Source: Promethearchaeota archaeon (GTDB lineage Archaea; Asgardarchaeota; Lokiarchaeia; Sigyniarchaeales; SOKP01). From it: a DNA stretch of 18,178 nt. A program made the translations under genes and the position numbers. The DNA is taken from positions 1 through 18,178 of the forward strand of contig JBHLME010000091.1 in NCBI GenBank assembly GCA_048938445.1, read 5' to 3'. The notes beneath the pieces are model-generated. The model was not told the DNA's origin. It worked only from the letters and a program-made list of their open reading frames with translations, and searched no databases. Below, piece by piece: positions 899-17,042 of this stretch (positions are counted from its first letter, which is position 1; each line of letters opens with the position of its first letter).

Positions 899-1292
899 CA
901 GGTACTTGAAATCCTCTGAATCAATTATATTCCTAACATTCTCTCGTTGTCTGATGGTAATATCACGTTTTAAAAGTAATTTCCGGTTAGAGCAAGTGAA
1001 AACCGTTAAATCAAAATAAAATATAATATATCAAATTTTTTCTTTATATAATAATAAATTAGTTACCTTATTATTTAAATTGAAAAAAATAATGATCCTA
1101 TTTTTCACTCTATTCACTTTTTTCGAGATATAATCTAGTTATATTATATAATTTTAAATATTGTATTCTTTTAAACATGATTTCATATAACTTCTTGAGA
1201 TTTATCTCTTTAGTATCCGTAATATTAATAAAAGTGTAATTTATTATGTTAATAAAATAAGATTACTGCAAAAAAATAGGAGTAATATATTC

Positions 1293-3323
1293 TTGGATCG
1301 AAGAAAACTTCGAGCATTACTTCAATGGTATAGGCAAGAAGTAGGAGATGATTTTGTAGCAGTTCTCGTTATAAATCGAGATGGTATAGGTTTTGACGTA
1401 TTAACCAAAGATCCTCGCAAATCTGTACAAGAAACGTTATTGGGAAATGTAAGCTTACTGATTGATTTAATCCTTAAAAAAATTACTAGAGAATTCACGT
1501 TAGGTTCTTTTGGAGTAGGGACATTTGATACTGAAGAATATAGATATATATTTTGTGAAGCAGGCCCTGAATATGTTCTTGTAACCGTCTTAAATGCACT
1601 TGCTTCAGTAGATCCATACTTTCCTTATGCTTATCTAGCTGCTGAAAAAGTGGCACGTATTGCAGATGGAAGACCTGTTAGTCCTGTCATTCCAAAAATA
1701 TATGTTGATGAGAAAGAAAGAATCATCACTCGAAAAATGAACACGCTCCAACAAATTAAGATTCATTCCTCATTATATGCATATAAATTAATATTAGGAG
1801 GAGAAGGAGGCGTTGGAAAAACAAGCATGGTACATAGATTCGTTGATGATGTTTTTCAGGATGATTATAAGGCAACTATAGGGACTTCAATAACTAAAAA
1901 AGAATGTGAATTTGATGGATTAAATTCTAAGGTTCGTTTCGTGATTTGGGATTTAGCAGGACAAGTCCAGTTTAAAAGAGTAAGACAAGCATATTTAGCA
2001 GATTCAGAAGCAGGTATTTTAGCTTTTGACCTTACCAGAAGAGAAACTTTTGAAAATATTAGAGAATGGTATAAAGAACTCACGGAACATTCTCCACCAG
2101 GATTATATCTTATTCTGGTTGGGAATAAAAAAGATTTAGAAATTTCAAGAGAAGTTACAAGTCAAGAAGCAGAAGATCTAGCAAGAGACTTAGGATTATC
2201 ATATGTTGAAACATCAGCAAAAACAGGAGAAAATGTCAATGATGCGTTCAAAATGCTCGCAATGCAAATGATAAAAAGGTTTCTGGAGACAGAGGATCTT
2301 GAAAAAATTGATACCAGTATTATGGAAGAAGAAAGCTCTAAGCCATTTAAAATCATACCTGAATTCACCAGGATAACTGAAGAAGAAGAACTCAAGGAAG
2401 AAAAGGGTTTTATTCAAGAAGTAAAAGTCCGAATTAAAGATGTTTGGCCTTCTTTAGAAGAAGATTTTACACGTTGGTTAGAAAAAAATATTGAAAGCTT
2501 GAACAAAACATTAGACATGGCAATCACGACAGTTGACTTAAAAGGTGGAACTATACTTGGAAGAGATAAATATGGGAGTAGAGTGCTTGTTGAGTGTCAA
2601 TTTGGAGAAACAAGAGAAGAGATTCTGGGTAAAATTCTCACGTCCATAATTAGACATAATATAAAAATTGTCATATGGATAAGTGAAGAACCATTACAAG
2701 AACATGTGAAAGCAATTAACTCATTAAATAAGAGCATGATGAATGATGCAGTATATTATCTTTTAAAAGTTGAAGTATTTGAAAAGGAAAATGTTATAAA
2801 GCCAAATTTTAAAATAATTTGTGATCCACGTGAAGCGGAAGATAATACCATTAGGGATAACGAAATTAATGAAGAAAATCAAGTTTTATCACTTGAAAAC
2901 AAACGTTTAAAATTTTGGAATCAATTACTTGATAAAATTAATGAAAAATCTCTGGATCATTCTAATTTAACAGCAAGTAAATCTTCATGGCTTTTTATAC
3001 CTACTGGTAAAGAAGGATTAAATTATGCTTATAAAATCAAAGAAAACTGGGCATCAATAGAATTATTTTTGGATAACCATAATAGACTCGTCAATAATGA
3101 GAGATTTAAACAACTTCATAAAAAGAAAGAAGAAATTTTCCTTTTTTCTCATGCAATTGAATGGGACTATGATGAAATAAGAAGTTTTCAATCTTTAAGG
3201 ATCCGAATTAACGGAGGCTTAAATGATGAAACTAACTGGGATGCACTTCAAAATAAAATGATAGAAATAATGAAATTATTAAAGAATAAAGTAGATCCTC
3301 ATTTAATTCATCTCAGGCTTTAA
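1293..3323 (+). CDS. Roadblock/LC7 + Rab/Ras-like small GTPase + degenerate PD-(D/E)XK-like + DUF4268 fusion protein
   Basis: TTG start with AGGAG at 1278-1282. aa1-125 have a Roadblock pattern (helix, FVAVLVINRDG, helix, three strands, helix). aa163-330 carry G1 GEGGVGKTS, G2 YKATIG, G3 WDLAGQ, G4 NKKD and G5 ETSAK. Acidic linker follows. aa378-510 (DVWPSLEEDFTRWLEKNI...VLVECQFG...LGKILT...VIWIS) resemble the N-terminal nuclease-like domain of DUF4268 proteins. aa535-676 (RLKFWNQL...SWLFIPTG...IELFLD...FKQLHKKKEEI...IEWD...NWDALQNKM) resemble DUF4268. Confidence 0.88.
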   Translation: MDRRKLRALLQWYRQEVGDDFVAVLVINRDGIGFDVLTKDPRKSVQETLLGNVSLLIDLILKKITREFTLGSFGVGTFDTEEYRYIFCEAGPEYVLVTVLNALASVDPYFPYAYLAAEKVARIADGRPVSPVIPKIYVDEKERIITRKMNTLQQIKIHSSLYAYKLILGGEGGVGKTSMVHRFVDDVFQDDYKATIGTSITKKECEFDGLNSKVRFVIWDLAGQVQFKRVRQAYLADSEAGILAFDLTRRETFENIREWYKELTEHSPPGLYLILVGNKKDLEISREVTSQEAEDLARDLGLSYVETSAKTGENVNDAFKMLAMQMIKRFLETEDLEKIDTSIMEEESSKPFKIIPEFTRITEEEELKEEKGFIQEVKVRIKDVWPSLEEDFTRWLEKNIESLNKTLDMAITTVDLKGGTILGRDKYGSRVLVECQFGETREEILGKILTSIIRHNIKIVIWISEEPLQEHVKAINSLNKSMMNDAVYYLLKVEVFEKENVIKPNFKIICDPREAEDNTIRDNEINEENQVLSLENKRLKFWNQLLDKINEKSLDHSNLTASKSSWLFIPTGKEGLNYAYKIKENWASIELFLDNHNRLVNNERFKQLHKKKEEIFLFSHAIEWDYDEIRSFQSLRIRINGGLNDETNWDALQNKMIEIMKLLKNKVDPHLIHLRL

Positions 3324-3545
3324 CTACTTTTATTTATTATATTAGATTCAAACAAAACCTAAAATTAGTTTTTTTTTATCGAAAACCAATAAATAAGAAT
3401 AATATCTCCTCTTAAATAAGAAAGTTTTGGGTAGCTCAATCTAAAAATCTGCAAAAAATTGTGATTTTATCAACAAACCTATCAATAGGTTATATCAAAA
3501 ATATGAAATAATATTAAAAAAATAGATGAGAGGAAGAAATTAGAT

Positions 3546-4130
3546 ATGAATTTTAATGATTTTGAGATAAAAACAAGGATTTATGTGAATAAGAATAAAA
3601 TGGACGAGCTTCAATCGAAAAAAAAAATCTTTGGTTTCCTACAGATGAAATTATCAATTAAAGCGATAACAAAAGAATTTCAAGATTCAATAAGACACAA
3701 GTTAAATAAAAAACAAGGGATTCCAATAATAAAACTTGCCAAGGAATGGGAACTTAATGATATATTAAATATATACAATCGCTCTTTTCTTAGCTCAAAC
3801 ACGCCTTTCCAAAAGATTGAAATAGATTTCTTGAAAGAGCTTTATAATATACCAGAAATTTCATTCTATATAGCAAGATATAATGGTGTGCCAGCAGGGT
3901 TCATGATCTTGGATTTCGAAGGAGATAATAAAGAATATGGGTTTATAACTGCATTAGGCATATTACCTAGATTTCAAGGAAAAAGAATTGGAACATTACT
4001 AGGCATACAAGCTTGGAATCACTTTAAAGAGAAAAATATAGAAGAACTTAGATGTGAGGTGTATTTCACTAATCAAAAATCAATTAGTTTCTTGAAATCA
4101 TTGAAATTTGAAGAATTTGCGATAAGATAA
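3546..4130 (+). CDS. GNAT-family N-acetyltransferase
   Basis: Acetyl-CoA motif A LGILPRFQGKRIGTLL and motif B VYFTNQKSISFLKSLKF. Purine-rich GAGAGGAAG upstream. Confidence 0.88.
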   Translation: MNFNDFEIKTRIYVNKNKMDELQSKKKIFGFLQMKLSIKAITKEFQDSIRHKLNKKQGIPIIKLAKEWELNDILNIYNRSFLSSNTPFQKIEIDFLKELYNIPEISFYIARYNGVPAGFMILDFEGDNKEYGFITALGILPRFQGKRIGTLLGIQAWNHFKEKNIEELRCEVYFTNQKSISFLKSLKFEEFAIR

Positions 4131-4182: not shown

Positions 4183-4710
4183 ATGGAAATTATTCTAAAA
4201 GATAAGTATGAAATATCACTTGAAACACAAAAATTTATTTTGCAAATGTGCATGGCTCAATGGGATGCCCAATGGTTTTTAAAATCGATAAAAAAGTTTG
4301 GGATAGATATTGCTAACGAAATGAATCAAACAGTAGTATCGTCATTCGGAAAAATCGAGGCTAAGCACATTTTAAATGCATTAGGAATTAAAAAAGGAAC
4401 TATAAAAACAATACCCGAAGTGTTCAAGATAATGAACACGATCATGGATGTGATCATTCCAAAAATCATGAAATTCAAGATGGTAATTCATTCTGACACG
4501 GAGGGGGATGGTATTGTAAAAAAGTGTTTTGTATGGGAAGAAGTAAAAAAGGCAAACAATGAAAATAACTATGTTTGTGCATGTAATTTTCGACACCGGG
4601 GATGGATGGAAGCAATGGGAATAGATGGAGAGATCATTCCAATGAAACGATTTCCTGATGGAGATGATGAGTGCATATTTAAATTTATCATGGATAACAG
4701 TAATGATTAA
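4183..4710 (+). CDS. V4R/ATC-hydrolase-like (DUF6125-like) Cys-containing protein
   Basis: N-terminal WDAQWF motif, then C-x15-CAC and a terminal GDDEC, the pattern of 4-vinyl-reductase-like folds. GAGGAG Shine-Dalgarno upstream. Paralog at 7526-8074. Confidence 0.65.
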   Translation: MEIILKDKYEISLETQKFILQMCMAQWDAQWFLKSIKKFGIDIANEMNQTVVSSFGKIEAKHILNALGIKKGTIKTIPEVFKIMNTIMDVIIPKIMKFKMVIHSDTEGDGIVKKCFVWEEVKKANNENNYVCACNFRHRGWMEAMGIDGEIIPMKRFPDGDDECIFKFIMDNSND

Positions 4711-4745
4711 ATTTAGGGACTATTCTTATATTTTAAGATAAAAAC

Positions 4746-5600
4746 ATGATAAATATTAAGGTTAAGGTAGAACTCATCGATCAAGAACCAGTCAAGATTT
4801 ACAGGATGTCTACTTTAGATTTACAAGAGAATCCCGTGATGTGGGTTTCAGCGTTTTTAATAGATGGTCTTCTCATAGATTGCGGTCATCATCATGCAAA
4901 AGAATTATTATTAAAAAAATTAGATTTTGATGAAATTGAACTGTGTATCTTGAGCCATCATCATGAAGATCATTATGGTTCTGCGCGTGTTCTAATGAAC
5001 AAGTATGATATCCCTGTATTTGCTTCCAAAGAAACTGCTTATTTAATTCAACCAAAAATCAGAATACCTCCAGAAAGGATGTTGGTGTGGGGCATACCAG
5101 AATCATGTAAGGTTAACATCTTACCAAATCTTCAGGAGATAAAAACATCTAAAACAAAATTTAAAATCATTCCTTCACCAGGTCATTGCAATAACTTAAT
5201 ATCTTTTTTTCATAAAAAGGAAGGAATATTATTCTCGACTGATGCGATGATTGATAAAAAACAGTCTGTAATATTTTATTGGGAAAATGCCAATTTAATG
5301 TTAGAAACATTCAAAAAATTTAAAGCTTTAAGACCAGAATATTTGTATTCTTCAAATAGTAACATTTTTTCTTATGAAGATCTTGATCATCTCATCGAAT
5401 ATTGGATAAATATTAAAGAAAAAAGCGCTAAATTACATTCTACAGGATTAAAACCTAGAGAAATTGTTAAAAGGGTTTTTGGAAAAGAAAGTTGGTTAAA
5501 AACAAGCACGAGAGGCGATATATCTCGTGAAAATTTAATAAGGTCTCTTCTTCATCTACCTCCTATCTTCAAGAAAAGAAGGATGAAGAAAACTATTTAA
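4746..5600 (+). CDS. Metallo-beta-lactamase-fold hydrolase
   Basis: LLIDCG, HxHxDH motif SHHHEDH, PGH and bridging Asp (FSTDA). Confidence 0.88.
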   Translation: MINIKVKVELIDQEPVKIYRMSTLDLQENPVMWVSAFLIDGLLIDCGHHHAKELLLKKLDFDEIELCILSHHHEDHYGSARVLMNKYDIPVFASKETAYLIQPKIRIPPERMLVWGIPESCKVNILPNLQEIKTSKTKFKIIPSPGHCNNLISFFHKKEGILFSTDAMIDKKQSVIFYWENANLMLETFKKFKALRPEYLYSSNSNIFSYEDLDHLIEYWINIKEKSAKLHSTGLKPREIVKRVFGKESWLKTSTRGDISRENLIRSLLHLPPIFKKRRMKKTI

Positions 5601-7525: not shown

Positions 7526-8074
7526 ATGAGAAATGATAAAGAACCACAAATTCATGAATTAGTTTCATCAATTCCTGAAAAAGAAAAATTTAACATGATG
7601 AGTAAAAATTGGTTATCTCATGATGCTCGATGGCAGATAGGATCTGTAATGTTTTTAGGATGGGATAAAGCAAATAAACTCAATCAAGATGTGACTAAAC
7701 AGATAGGTAAAATCTTGATGTTTCGGTTGATGAATGCCCTCAATATCTCTCAAGTAAACAATTTTCATGAACTAATGTTATTGTTAGGAACGGCAATTTA
7801 TCTTAATTTCTCTGTCAATCCATCTAATTGGCAAATGGAAATATTTTCAAATGAATTATGTAAGGTAGAAATTGAAAAATGTTTAACTTTTGAGAATATT
7901 AAACGTGCTGGAGCAATAGGAAATTATGATTGTGCTTGCTTTGCGTTGCGGGAAGGCTTTTTTGATGCTTTGAATTTACAAGTAGAACAATCCTGTCAGA
8001 AAAGTTTAATGAAAGGAGATGATAAATGTGAAATTTGTCTTAAAATAAAAAACTGGAATAAAAATAACAATTAA
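7526..8074 (+). CDS. V4R/ATC-hydrolase-like (DUF6125-like) Cys-containing protein, second paralog
   Basis: NWLSHDARW motif, C-x15-CAC and GDDKC, aligning by eye with 4183-4710. GGAG upstream. Confidence 0.65.
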   Translation: MRNDKEPQIHELVSSIPEKEKFNMMSKNWLSHDARWQIGSVMFLGWDKANKLNQDVTKQIGKILMFRLMNALNISQVNNFHELMLLLGTAIYLNFSVNPSNWQMEIFSNELCKVEIEKCLTFENIKRAGAIGNYDCACFALREGFFDALNLQVEQSCQKSLMKGDDKCEICLKIKNWNKNNN

Positions 8075-11211: not shown

Positions 11212-11543
11212 ATTTTTTCAACACGATAGGTAATAGTATAATTAGAACAATTTAGCGTACCTAATTTACTCTTTTTTTTTTTAATAAATTTGAAGAAAGA
11301 AATAGGGATGAGGAATAAAAAATTCCTAATAGTATAGAAAGAGAATGATAAGGCGATTAGGGTAGGAACTTTTATTCTAAATTCATAACTTTACATGGGT
11401 GTGCTAAAATAAAATTAGATTATGTGGATTAAAATCACTATACCGTGTTAATTTATTAATTTTTAAAAAATTAAAATTTATAATTCAAGAATTTTTAAAA
11501 CAAAATTACTATAGTACAATTATTATAAATGTAAGTGGACAAA

Positions 11544-11681
11544 ATGAAATGTGAAATCTGCAGAAAAGAAGTATCAGGTATTAATGCCATACAAAAATTT
11601 GATGTTGATGAATACACAACCGTACATGTTTTTTGTTCTGAAGAATGTCAGAAGAAGTGGAAATCTAAGAAAAAAAAATGA
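11544..11681 (+). CDS. 45-aa TRASH/YHS/MYM-like zinc-finger microprotein
   Basis: Manual translation gives MKCEICRKEVSGINAIQKFDVDEYTTVHVFCSEECQKKWKSKKKK*, i.e. CxxC-x24-CxxxC with the FCSxxC signature. Below the ORF-track cut-off. GTGGA upstream. Confidence 0.75.
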   Translation: MKCEICRKEVSGINAIQKFDVDEYTTVHVFCSEECQKKWKSKKKK

Positions 11682-11912
11682 ATTCATGCAAAAACATTTA
11701 TAAAATTTCTTAAAAATAACTTTTATTCTTTTAGAATTACATGTTCTAAAGAATGAACGACCATTCAATTATTAAAGTATATTCTTAGTATCTATAAGAA
11801 AATATTTCTCATTTATTAAATAGGGAATAATTATAAATATAATACAATAATATCATTTATTGGTATATCTAATATATAATTTAATTTACACCAAAAGAGG
11901 GTAGTTCTATTA

Positions 11913-12209
11913 ATGGAAGAAATCGAAATCAAAAAAGAAGTTTTTAAAAAACGAAAAGAAAAATATATGGAAGAGGCAAGTTTACAGTATGAAAAAGTGT
12001 ACTTGGAACTTAAATTAAAAATCATGGAAAAAAATAAAGAAAAGTTAAGACCACTAATAAAAAAGCATAATAACAAAGTAATTGATTATTTTGAAAAACG
12101 ACTCTCAGAAGAAGTTAATAAAGCAGAAAGACAAGGTAAAAATTTTAAGACACCTGAATATGTTAAATTAGTAAAAGATTTTTGGGATAGATTATACATT
12201 TTTGAATAA
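11913..12209 (+). CDS. Hypothetical charged helical protein (98 aa)
   Basis: ATG with GAGGG upstream. K/E-rich composition typical of real genes in this window. No recognisable motif. Confidence 0.65.
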   Translation: MEEIEIKKEVFKKRKEKYMEEASLQYEKVYLELKLKIMEKNKEKLRPLIKKHNNKVIDYFEKRLSEEVNKAERQGKNFKTPEYVKLVKDFWDRLYIFE

Positions 12210-12274
12210 TAATATAAATCTCAAATTATGTATACTTAGTTAAAGTTCAATAAGAAAAATAATAAGGTTATTTT

Positions 12275-15181: not shown

Positions 15182-16138
15182 ATGTTGTCCAACCAAGAAA
15201 CACAGATGATTATTAACAATCTTAATAAAGTTTTCATACCTCATAAGTCTGTCCTTGAAATGGAGGCTTTAATTTGCACTTGTTTAATTGATTTTGGCTA
15301 TGACCATATTAGAGAGGTTCCTAGTATTCGGCCAAATGCAGAACAATTATATGATATTTTGAAGATTAAAGGAATTCCACCATTAATGGAAATTGTCGAA
15401 AGATTTATCAATATAACTGTTGAAAAATTGAAACCTATTGCAATGTATTCGAGAAATCATCATAATATCAATAGGATGGGGAACGTAATTGCATATAGTA
15501 AAACGAGAATACCTCTGTTTTTAGCATTATATAGATTAAAATTCAAATTTTTATTATTAAAAAATTATCTGGATAGGTTCAAGCAAAATAATTATAATAT
15601 AATATCCCAAGATTCGAAAATAAAATTTAGAACAGCAATATATGAGGATTATTACTTGAAAAATAAGATGGCTCTTGATTTAATGATTCCTGAAAGACAC
15701 GAATCAAATGAGGTGAGAAAAAGATTGAATTTATCTGGAAAAATTCAGAGAGAAGACATAATTGATATGGCAACGATAGAAGATTTTACTTCAGGTGATA
15801 AAGAATCAAATTATTTAATGAGAAGCATTAAAGCATCATTTTTCGTGACTAAATTTCTATTTTCAAAAATTGATGTTTTAAAACCTTTCAGGACAGGAGA
15901 TATACAAGTGGATGTAGAGGAAACCATATCTAGCAATATAATCATACCTAACATGATCCAGGCGGTATCAAACTTTCATTCAGAGAATAATTTGAACCTA
16001 TTAAAAGATAGCTTCCTAGCATTCGAATTTTTAATAAAAAATGTGCTTGAAGGAATAAATAATGCATTAGGTATTGCTTCTGGAGGTCAAATACAACTTG
16101 ATTTAGAATCAAACATTAAAGATTTTAATGTTAATTAG
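15182..16138 (+). CDS. Hypothetical protein (318 aa)
   Basis: Long ORF in AT-rich DNA with GAGAGGA upstream. No recognisable motif. Confidence 0.75.
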   Translation: MLSNQETQMIINNLNKVFIPHKSVLEMEALICTCLIDFGYDHIREVPSIRPNAEQLYDILKIKGIPPLMEIVERFINITVEKLKPIAMYSRNHHNINRMGNVIAYSKTRIPLFLALYRLKFKFLLLKNYLDRFKQNNYNIISQDSKIKFRTAIYEDYYLKNKMALDLMIPERHESNEVRKRLNLSGKIQREDIIDMATIEDFTSGDKESNYLMRSIKASFFVTKFLFSKIDVLKPFRTGDIQVDVEETISSNIIIPNMIQAVSNFHSENNLNLLKDSFLAFEFLIKNVLEGINNALGIASGGQIQLDLESNIKDFNVN

Positions 16139-16917
16139 CGATAAATTAACTCCTCCTTTCTGATATCACTTTGTAATTGTTCAAATTCCTTATCGGATAA
16201 AAATCCCTTATGCATTAGAATATCATAAATTTTTTCAATTAATCTTGATGAAATTTTGGTATTTTCATCATATTCTTCTATTTTTTCAACTTTCCGGGAT
16301 AATTCAAGTATATCTTTGGTTTTTTCTGCTAATTGATATTTTAGTTTATCGATTAATTTATCTTTATCTTGAATTGATACTTCTAAACCTTCCTTAACGA
16401 AAGAAACCTCTTTCTCTTTCCGGTCTAATTTGATTTCAAGAATTTTTATTTGATCATCTTTATCATTTATGATACTCGCCAGGTGTTCTATTTCTTTATC
16501 TCTCTCTGATATTAGCATTTCAAGATCATCATTTTTCTCTGAAGTCAAATTTTCTAATTCCATTTCTAGATCCTTTTTTTCTTTTTGCACCTTGATCAAG
16601 CTTTTCTCTAACTGAGTATTAATATTTTTTAGGACATCTCTTTCTTGCTTGAGGAATTCTTCATTTTTATGGATTTCATCTTTTTTAAGCGTAAATAATT
16701 CAGAAACACTTGATAAGTGTTCTTGTGTATTGTTTAATTTGTTTTGAATTTGGAGAATATCTTCCATTTTCTTACTTAATTCAACCTTGTATCGCTCAAG
16801 TTGTAGATCTAAATTATTCATTTTTGCTTCCATATCTAAAAGCATTTGGCCTTTAATTTTTTGAAATGATTCAGGTTTTTCACGAGCTTTTTTCCAGTCT
16901 ATGACCACAGATTTCAC
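16135..16917 (-). CDS. Long coiled-coil protein with short SHOCT-like C-terminal motif
   Basis: GTG start. About 190 aa of K/E/L/Q heptad-like sequence without Pro, then C-terminal ILMHKGFLSDKEFEQL. Stop codon overlaps that of the convergent ORF (TTAG 16135-16138). Confidence 0.75.
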   Translation of the reverse strand: MKSVVIDWKKAREKPESFQKIKGQMLLDMEAKMNNLDLQLERYKVELSKKMEDILQIQNKLNNTQEHLSSVSELFTLKKDEIHKNEEFLKQERDVLKNINTQLEKSLIKVQKEKKDLEMELENLTSEKNDDLEMLISERDKEIEHLASIINDKDDQIKILEIKLDRKEKEVSFVKEGLEVSIQDKDKLIDKLKYQLAEKTKDILELSRKVEKIEEYDENTKISSRLIEKIYDILMHKGFLSDKEFEQLQSDIRKEELIYR

Positions 16918-17042
16918 CCCATTTAATCATTAATATTGTTTCATCCAACCTTTTATTAAAATTCTTTATCGAATTTTTTAAGGTATTGGACGTTTCTGTA
17001 TAAAATAAGTATGCTTTCTATAAAAACGTTTCTTTAGTTGGA

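Follow-up and report, generated by a model that had tools for sequence, protein, structure and literature searches.

A Rab-like GTPase of a Lokiarchaeal Asgard archaeon fused to a restriction-type module with a degenerate active site

The stretch of DNA analyzed here, referred to as the window, makes up all of one contig (18,178 bases) in the genome bin of a Promethearchaeota archaeon; the bin comprises 4.6 Mb in 256 contigs. It contains an open reading frame (ORF) at positions 1293..3323 (the stop codon included), which encodes a protein of 676 amino acids (aa). This protein consists of a Roadblock domain, a Rab-like small GTPase, an acidic linker, and a two-domain C-terminal module, which corresponds over its whole length to a stand-alone anti-phage protein of the PDC-S11/Madara type. 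The nuclease site of the module is degenerate, the module is nevertheless under purifying selection, and no defence genes are found beside it. These results suggest, with a probability of roughly 0.6, that it is an exapted non-catalytic module on a dimeric Roadblock/Rab-like GTPase switch and derives from one captured gene of the PDC-S11/Madara type.

Asgard genomes contain dozens of Ras-superfamily GTPases, and additions at the C-terminus are among the few clues to their targets. The addition described here is traceable, because it appears to be a whole anti-phage restriction protein that was captured once, disarmed, and long kept under selection.

C-terminal module of the fusion protein

The gene and its parts are located on the plus strand of the window. 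In the C-terminal module, the NucS-like PD-(D/E)XK nuclease-fold domain (aa 378-512, 2424..2828), which forms the N-terminal half of the PDC-S11 module, is joined by an interdomain linker (aa 513-537, 2829..2903) to a DUF4268 domain (aa 538-676, 2904..3320). The PDC-S11 model PDLC04914 of PADLOC matches aa 378-674 with an E value of 3.6e-54 and covers positions 10-311 of the 314 positions of this hidden Markov model (HMM), and three further PDC-S11 models of PADLOC match the same protein. DUF4268 (PF14088) is detected by Pfam at aa 538-667 with an E value of 1.1e-14 (55 bits against a cut-off of 27). The AlphaFold2 (AF2) model of aa 373-676 shows two domains with a predicted local distance difference test score (pLDDT) of 89.6. 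The interdomain linker has a pLDDT below 50 at model residues 146-158 and a mean identity of only 0.19 among orthologues.

The first domain of this model (residues 15-132) superposes on the nuclease domain of NucS from P. abyssi (Pab NucS, 2vld_B, chain residues 126-233) with a Z score of 10.2 and a root mean square deviation of 2.2 over 97 residues. It also matches the nuclease domains of AspBHI (Z 8.4) and MspJI (Z 7.5), FokI and other restriction enzymes, and EndoMS (5gke and 5gkj, probability 1.00). The fold of the DUF4268 domain is closest to the YbjN/type III secretion chaperone-like alpha+beta folds, with a borderline Z score of about 8. EVE, PUA, and YTH folds are not found among the matches listed by the structure aligner and Foldseek, a result that does not by itself exclude an EVE fold.

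Stand-alone proteins of approximately 312 aa align to aa 374-675 with 34-37% identity. The stand-alone family is large: in a profile search, 6583 proteins among 8000 scored have E values of 1e-10 or lower. Stand-alone relatives are also present in 361 plasmid records, 99 of them at a coverage of at least 80%, and the whole-length matches in the viral library are phage proteins annotated as restriction endonucleases. This family is found by exhaustive and profile searches; a word-indexed search with the module gave a single fragment because of the low sensitivity of the index. Thus, the resemblance to stand-alone DUF4268 proteins of restriction type, which a preliminary description of this DNA had proposed for the C-terminal half, extends over the entire PDC-S11 protein, and both DUF4268 and the PD-(D/E)XK fold are detected in it.

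PDC-S11 of E. coli has been renamed Madara and is described as a modification-dependent anti-phage nuclease in a preprint of September 2026 (bioRxiv 10.64898/2026.09.05.749240). According to this preprint, Madara restricts T4 with glucosyl-hydroxymethylcytosine, but not unmodified T4, and consists of an N-terminal NucS-like PD-(D/E)XK nuclease domain and a C-terminal putative modification-sensing domain. The D63A mutation abolishes defence, and an EVE-like fold is suggested for DUF4268. The DUF4268 domain of the stand-alone PDC-S11/Madara proteins is a putative reader of a ligand or modified DNA. DUF4268 is also reported in the modification-dependent nucleases MdgA and MdgB; MdgA, like Madara, restricts T4 with modified cytosines, and its E77A variant is inactive (bioRxiv 10.1101/2025.02.28.640651). 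MdgA may belong to the same family as PDC-S11/Madara, and the single point of fit is the 14-residue spacing between D63 of Madara and E77 of MdgA, which matches D-x13-E.

Distribution and origin of the fusion

Public data contain 32 other full-length proteins of this architecture (660-693 aa, 41-76% identity, 97-100% coverage), which come from independent assemblies, as well as shorter forms. The preliminary description had suggested a search for the same architecture in other Asgard genomes. Uninterrupted frames of 643-710 aa are found in 17 of 400 Asgard genomes, that of the window included, and all 17 belong to the family of the window; a PDC-S11 match of any kind is found in 39 of the 400. 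Among the 134 other genomes of the window's family, 22 have such a match. The distribution is patchy by genus (g1, 4/5; g5, 4/4; g13, 4/7; g10, 4/10; g11, 2/54; g12, 1/42). The genome of the window contains one fused copy. Other Asgard families have stand-alone frames of 290-342 aa, and one genome from the window's own genus has such a frame together with the fused gene.

To place the fused modules among the stand-alone proteins, a tree of 54 rows was built by a quick IQ-TREE search with LG+C20 from 36 fused rows (rows with at least 97% identity removed) and 18 stand-alone representatives. All 36 fused rows, together with a fused fragment cut by a contig end (L018), form one clade with a support of 100 in the SH-like approximate likelihood ratio test (SH-aLRT). 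The sister of this clade is a pair of stand-alone proteins (99), one of which comes from the window's own genus. A tree of the N-terminal halves (86 rows, quick search with LG+G4, root not inferred) gives the same main groupings as the module tree. The module tree indicates that the fused module was captured once. In the N-terminal-half tree, 33 of 34 rows of a family of 397-aa Roadblock-GTPases group together in a single clade (SH-aLRT 97), next to one of the fused subclades (90), and of seven intermediate-length forms (480-518 aa), four are without DUF4268 and fall inside another fused subclade. This result suggests, with moderate support, that the 397-aa and approximately 510-aa forms arose by secondary loss.

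The 397-aa family (P0041-P0076) is widespread, has a C-terminal tail of about 65 aa, and is 49-57% identical to the N-terminal half of the window's protein; its sources are named Lokiarchaeota, Promethearchaeota, Heimdallarchaeota, or Hermodarchaeota. Roadblock-GTPases of approximately 510 aa with the NucS-like domain only are represented by L038 9794-11323 (genome G169), L028 (G172), P0034, P0035, and P0038, and D..ExQ is kept in most. At L038, a small GTPase gene adjoins a gene for a leucine-rich-repeat protein at 15425-16964, some 4 kb away from the gene of this type. In the same family as the window, an 854-aa frame (G227:C4:45839-46318) matches the DUF4268 half only (PDC-S11 positions 150-311) and possibly represents another DUF4268 fusion.

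Active site and selection

The stand-alone proteins share the motif D57-x13-E71-x-Q73, followed by K84 (E+13) and Y88 (E+17) in the numbering of P0184. The spacing of these D/E/Q/K/Y residues parallels that of Pab NucS, for which D160, E174, K176, Q187, and Y191 are listed and Y191 is called a key residue of the active site (PMC7343888); the position of Y88 corresponds to the spacing of Tyr191. In the protein of the window, the corresponding stretch (2550..2645) is degenerate, as judged from alignments and residue counts. Thr420 occupies the position of the catalytic Asp and Ser451 that of the NucS-type Tyr, and Glu434, Gln436, and Lys447 are kept. A deletion of 8-9 residues precedes Thr420 and is common to the 11-member subclade of this protein.

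The D/E/Q residues are intact in 129 of 130 rows of stand-alone length, the exception being the contig-cut fused fragment L018, whereas they are intact in only 13 of 56 fused rows, or 8 of 36 when rows with at least 97% identity are removed. The D..ExQ state requires at least six changes on the module tree. When residues kept in at least 90% of 127 stand-alone proteins are scored in the 36 fused rows, retention is 0.00 for Y88, so that the NucS-type Tyr is kept in none of them, 0.03 for H79, 0.06 for E18, 0.11 for D80, 0.28 for K84, 0.42 for H81, 0.44 for E71, and 0.53 for D57. The account best supported by these patterns is that catalysis was lost early in the fused clade, in which the Tyr and H-D-H residues are gone clade-wide, and that the Asp and Glu residues were then lost repeatedly.

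The loss of the active-site residues is not accompanied by a loss of constraint. The ratio of nonsynonymous to synonymous substitution rates (dN/dS), calculated by the Nei-Gojobori method for 11 gene pairs, is 0.07-0.27 for both domains of the module and 0.01-0.17 for the Roadblock domain plus GTPase; many of these pairs have dS values above 1, which are saturated and make their ratios rough, but the low values for the module hold in two pairs with unsaturated dS and in lineages without the Asp or Glu. The aromatic and core residues W395, N479, F541, W542, Y580, W624, G642, and W649 are retained at 0.94-1.0. In addition, R604, S619, and Q633 of DUF4268 are specific to the fused clade (0.86-1.0 in fused and 0.03-0.05 in stand-alone proteins). 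No frame disruption is found in 16 full-length genome copies with aligned codons; stop codons are flagged in G158 and G160, yet the frames at both loci are uninterrupted over 683-691 aa. With an identity among orthologues of 0.39-0.40, versus 0.62-0.69 for the N-terminal half, the module is the faster-evolving part. These results indicate that the module is under purifying selection despite the decay of its active site.

GTPase, Roadblock domain, and gene structure

The GTPase domain (aa 163-330, 1779..2282) is matched by the Pfam Ras family at aa 165-327 with an E value of 1e-48 (165.4 bits against a cut-off of 21.6). Its best solved relative is a Thorarchaeota Rab (7ezb, E 3.5e-40), and the eukaryotic Rabs Sec4, Ypt6, Rab8, and Rab1 rank next with E values of about 1e-33 to 1e-34; the likeness to Rab is thus one of best-match similarity. 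The five G motifs proposed in the preliminary description, with the Rab-like switch and the catalytic Gln, are all present: GEGGVGKT (170-177), YKATIG (192-197), DLAGQ (220-224), NKKD (278-281), and SAK (308-310). The positions checked in these motifs are invariant in 32 of 32 orthologues, including Gln224 of DxxGQ, except for K310 (28/32). The protein ends with HLIHLRL and has no C-terminal Cys motif for prenylation, which true Rabs have. The GTPase is followed by an acidic linker (aa 331-377, 2283..2423), which varies in length and has a mean identity of 0.22 among orthologues.

The N-terminal domain (aa 1-125, 1293..1667) is identified as a Roadblock/LC7 (MglB-like) domain by its predicted fold only. 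Pfam Robl_LC7 (PF03259) gives no match to this protein at E values of 1 or lower and does not reach its gathering score; 11 of 32 family members show weak matches, the best with an E value of 0.022. The AF2 model of aa 1-165, built from a 53-row alignment, has a pLDDT of 83.8 and a predicted template modelling score of 0.83, and its topology, alpha-beta-beta-alpha-beta-beta-beta-alpha, is that of the Roadblock fold. With this model, Foldseek detects 77 chains of the Protein Data Bank at E values of 0.001 or lower. The top match is Roadblock3 of Prometheoarchaeum MK-D1 (9jue, E 1.4e-6, template modelling score 0.76 on the target), and MglB (1j3w and 3t12, E about 1e-6, probability 1.00), a Thorarchaeota Roadblock protein, and Ragulator/LAMTOR subunits are also among the leading matches. 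A connector (aa 126-162, 1668..1778) with a mean identity of 0.58 links this domain to the GTPase and contains a SPVIP motif, whose columns (S130 to P134) are invariant.

The whole gene is read as one uninterrupted frame with TTG as the initiation codon. This start agrees with the orthologues, which share the first residue and the sequence M-D-R-(R/K)-K-L, and AGGAG at 1278..1282, 10 nt 5' of TTG, is a possible ribosome-binding site. The genome bin has a completeness of 96.5% and a contamination of 8.2%, the GC content of the window is about 0.25-0.34, and the closest public proteins carry the names Lokiarchaeota or Promethearchaeota. The ORF represents one real gene of a Lokiarchaeal (Promethearchaeota) Asgard archaeon, and the composition given in the preliminary description (Roadblock domain, small GTPase, acidic linker, and two-domain C-terminal unit in one frame) agrees with the Pfam, fold, and PADLOC matches.

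The gene belongs to a set of about 50 small-GTPase genes in this genome, where 53 loci match its Roadblock-GTPase half at E values of 1e-10 or lower. The closest paralogue is a 340-aa Roadblock-GTPase frame with 64% identity. Four of the 53 loci are located within about 50 kb of contig C208, three of them within about 3 kb (63985-66808).

Genomic context of fused and stand-alone genes

The neighbours of the fused gene in the window are a divergent upstream gene for a PAS-domain protein, the frame of which runs off the contig end, and genes for a GNAT acetyltransferase, a metallo-beta-lactamase-fold protein, ketohexokinase, MarR, ThiC, and a two-component pair. Eight orthologous loci, analyzed as 20-kb stretches, contain metabolic genes and PAS kinases. 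A gene for Tpt1/KptA (RNA 2'-phosphotransferase), which is absent from the window, follows the fused gene immediately and in the same orientation in two of the eight (L032 9300-9860 and L034 8719-9276), and GNAT genes are nearby in two others. No defence system is detected in the window or the eight fused loci by Pfam, nor by PADLOC in the window and seven of these loci (L038 was analyzed by Pfam only); PADLOC gives only domain-level matches and one type II methylase about 3.8 kb away. In contrast, both stand-alone loci analyzed are in a defence context, one beside type I-D CRISPR-Cas (L039) and the other near HEC-05, which is GmrSD-like, and PDC-S05 (L040).

The stand-alone copy at L039 (G153:C95:1-15000, 4567-5490) comes from the window's own genus and has D..ExQ and the Tyr intact. 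It has on one side a gene whose 1009-aa product carries an NYN/Zc3h12a RNase domain at its C-terminus, and on the other a complete type I-D set (Cas10d, Cas11d, Cas7d, Cas5d, Cas3d, Cas6, and CARF). The same genome (G153) contains the fused gene on another contig.

Comparison with known systems

The module shares with PDC-S11/Madara the whole-length HMM match and the arrangement of a NucS-like PD-(D/E)XK domain and DUF4268, and the fused modules are nested beside the stand-alone proteins. It differs in that it is the C-terminal part of a 676-aa GTPase protein instead of a protein of approximately 312 aa, has lost the catalytic Asp, Tyr, and H-D-H residues, and is not located in a defence island. 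The likeness to NucS/EndoMS lies in their C-terminal nuclease fold and in the spacing D-x13-E-x-(K/Q), then +13 and +17, but their N-terminal DNA-binding/dimerization domain is not matched here, and the Asp and Tyr residues are absent. Pfam NucS_C gives sub-threshold matches only, in two of five stand-alone relatives.

McrBC is a GTP-dependent type IV restriction system with an AAA+-type NTPase. The fusion protein resembles McrBC and GmrSD in that an NTPase is combined with a nuclease fold, and DUF4268 is also reported on GmrSD type IV enzymes (PMC4619093, PMC5714182), but here a Ras-type small GTPase accompanied by a Roadblock domain takes the place of an AAA+ or ParB-like NTPase, and the nuclease site is degenerate. 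Rabs have the highest sequence similarity to the GTPase domain, and the eukaryotic ones share with it the YKATIG switch I and DLAGQ with the catalytic Gln. They differ from it in their prenylation Cys, in their hypervariable tail, which is replaced here by a folded 300-aa module, and in the lack of an N-terminal Roadblock domain. Bacterial MglB shares the Roadblock fold, but is a protein separate from MglA, while the Roadblock domain is fused here.

Roadblock-GTPase fusions are on record in Asgard archaea (Tran et al. 2024, PMC10933270), as the preliminary description had stated. As described there, they have the same order of a Roadblock domain followed by a Ras-superfamily GTPase, but terminate with the GTPase or with a short tail behind it. 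The legend of Fig. 1f of this paper marks domains of unknown function by '?', and the words 'DUF4268' and 'nuclease' do not occur in its main text. In a literature search that covered main texts, no published description of a Roadblock/GTPase/PDC-S11 fusion is found, in agreement with the preliminary description, which knew of none; Supplementary Fig. 4 or Table 3 of PMC10933270, which are outside this search, could list it under '?'.

Discussion

We propose that an ancestral Roadblock/Rab-like GTPase acquired once, at its C-terminus, a complete stand-alone gene of the PDC-S11/Madara type. The captured module would sit where eukaryotic Rabs bear their targeting tail. After fusion it would have ceased to be a restriction nuclease, with its fold, its aromatic core, and new clade-specific polar residues of DUF4268 being kept. 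The GTPase is predicted from its intact motifs to be a working GTP/GDP switch, and the Roadblock domain probably mediates dimerization and controls the GTPase, in the manner of MglB acting on MglA and of the Roadblock domains in Rag GTPases. The dead-nuclease/DUF4268 module would serve for binding; its ancestry makes DNA or a ligand derived from nucleic acids the most likely target, and the module would thereby either localize the switch or feed ligand occupancy into it. Dimerization, the class of the ligand, and coupling to the GTPase cycle are suggested by analogy with the known systems. Complex prediction for aa 1-340 with GTP and Mg against aa 373-676 gives a score of 0.00, which argues neither for nor against an intramolecular contact.

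Several results weigh against this proposal. The class of the ligand is deduced from ancestry alone. Polar residues of DUF4268 are lost in the fused proteins (retention 0.0 for R266, 0.17 for K236, 0.11 for D240, and 0.22 for E250), so that the ancestral ligand, presumably modified DNA, may no longer be bound. D..ExQ is kept in 8 of the 36 fused proteins, and Glu434, Gln436, and Lys447 are kept in that of the window; residual or altered catalysis by the fused module is therefore conceivable. The mean net charge of DUF4268 is -1.5 in fused versus +3.7 in stand-alone proteins, but the value for the window's own domain is +2, and this ambiguous difference is not used as evidence. The trees are quick searches with midpoint rooting, many dS values are saturated, the eight fused loci include relatives of the same genus and are not independent, and the stand-alone loci are only two.

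The preliminary description had proposed a DNA/RNA-responsive GTPase or a defence-linked protein. The restriction-type ancestry agrees with this idea, and a nucleic-acid-directed role is plausible; the degenerate site, the losses of polar residues in DUF4268, and the lack of a defence neighbourhood weaken it. A more specific form of our proposal, in which a Rab-type switch is wired to a reader of DNA or DNA modification exapted from a type IV restriction enzyme and the GTP and nucleic-acid states are coupled in one dimer, is tentative and rather unlikely. If it is true, a GTPase signalling device directed to the nucleoid or to foreign DNA would be possible, and the protein would be the first small GTPase of Asgard archaea to act away from membranes and face DNA, with Ran and immune GTPases as closer conceptual counterparts than trafficking Rabs.

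It is unlikely that the module no longer binds nucleic acids and now serves as a protein-interaction module or intramolecular regulator of the GTPase, for example as an effector-like domain, a lid resembling a GTPase-activating protein or guanine nucleotide exchange factor, or a second dimer interface. Both domains have lost most of their conserved polar residues with the fold core kept, DUF4268 has acquired residues characteristic of the fused clade, and its closest folds are small protein-binding chaperone-like ones, though with a borderline Z score. Moreover, forms without DUF4268 or without any module are nested among the fused forms, indicating that the module is dispensable in some lineages. 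However, there is no positive evidence of a protein partner or an intramolecular contact, the ancestry points to DNA, and the linker that follows the GTPase, being long, acidic, and unconserved, suits an independent module on a tether. It is distinctly improbable that the protein is a working type IV restriction or defence enzyme under GTP control, in which DUF4268 senses modified foreign DNA, the GTPase gates or times the response, and the NucS-like domain cuts, by the same logic as in McrBC. The module is a full-length homologue of PDC-S11/Madara, Madara and MdgA are reported to restrict T4 with modified cytosines (10.64898/2026.09.05.749240, 10.1101/2025.02.28.640651), part of the active site is kept as described above, and stand-alone relatives occur on plasmids and in defence islands. 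Such an enzyme is nevertheless difficult to reconcile with the replacement of the catalytic Asp by Thr420 after a deletion, with the absence of the Tyr in 36 of 36 fused proteins and the near absence of H-D-H, given that D63A alone is reported to inactivate Madara (10.64898/2026.09.05.749240), with the lack of defence genes beside the window's gene and at the eight fused loci, and with the restriction of the fused gene to one family, unlike the spread of mobile defence genes.

The loss of catalytic residues, the faster evolution of the module, and the existence of shorter forms would also be expected if the module were a decaying, functionless remnant carried by a useful Roadblock-GTPase. This possibility is very slight: dN/dS is low in 11 of 11 pairs, none of the 16 codon-aligned full-length copies is disrupted, the core and clade-specific residues hardly vary among 36 sequences, and the AF2 model of the module is confident. 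That the fusion is an artefact of assembly or gene calling, by which neighbouring genes were joined, is effectively refuted. No independent contig in the runs compared bridges nt 2368-2471, and the only contig that spans the whole gene (1240-3600, without difference) comes from a run that is possibly the source of the window. The read evidence is thin, and the interval lacks cover rather than showing a break. An independent-study contig (X4) continues from the GTPase into the linker (2042-2367) without difference, the frame is uninterrupted, the same frame is present in 32 other full-length proteins and 16 other genomes, and the trees of the N-terminal half and the module share their main groupings. 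The coverage break at the linker that would mark a chimeric assembly, raised in the preliminary description, is thus not seen.

The proposal of an exapted binding module on a Roadblock/Rab-like switch provides one GTPase family with a testable hypothesis, namely that the binding of DNA or another ligand is coupled to the GTP cycle. The protein would provide a clean natural case, within the lineage closest to eukaryotes, in which a signalling protein has exapted a defence nuclease. The fused and stand-alone proteins also amount to a set of naturally occurring Madara variants, some with catalytic residues and some lacking them, which is useful for dissecting recognition by DUF4268.

Other features of the window

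Scans of the window give no Rfam families or tRNAs. Two paralogous ORFs of 175 and 182 aa (4183-4710 and 7526-8074) show sub-threshold Pfam matches to DUF6125 (22 and 20 bits against a cut-off of 27). Between ThiC and the response-regulator gene, a gap of approximately 1 kb (11212-12274) has the lowest GC content of the window (0.25) and contains only ORFs of 64-98 aa.

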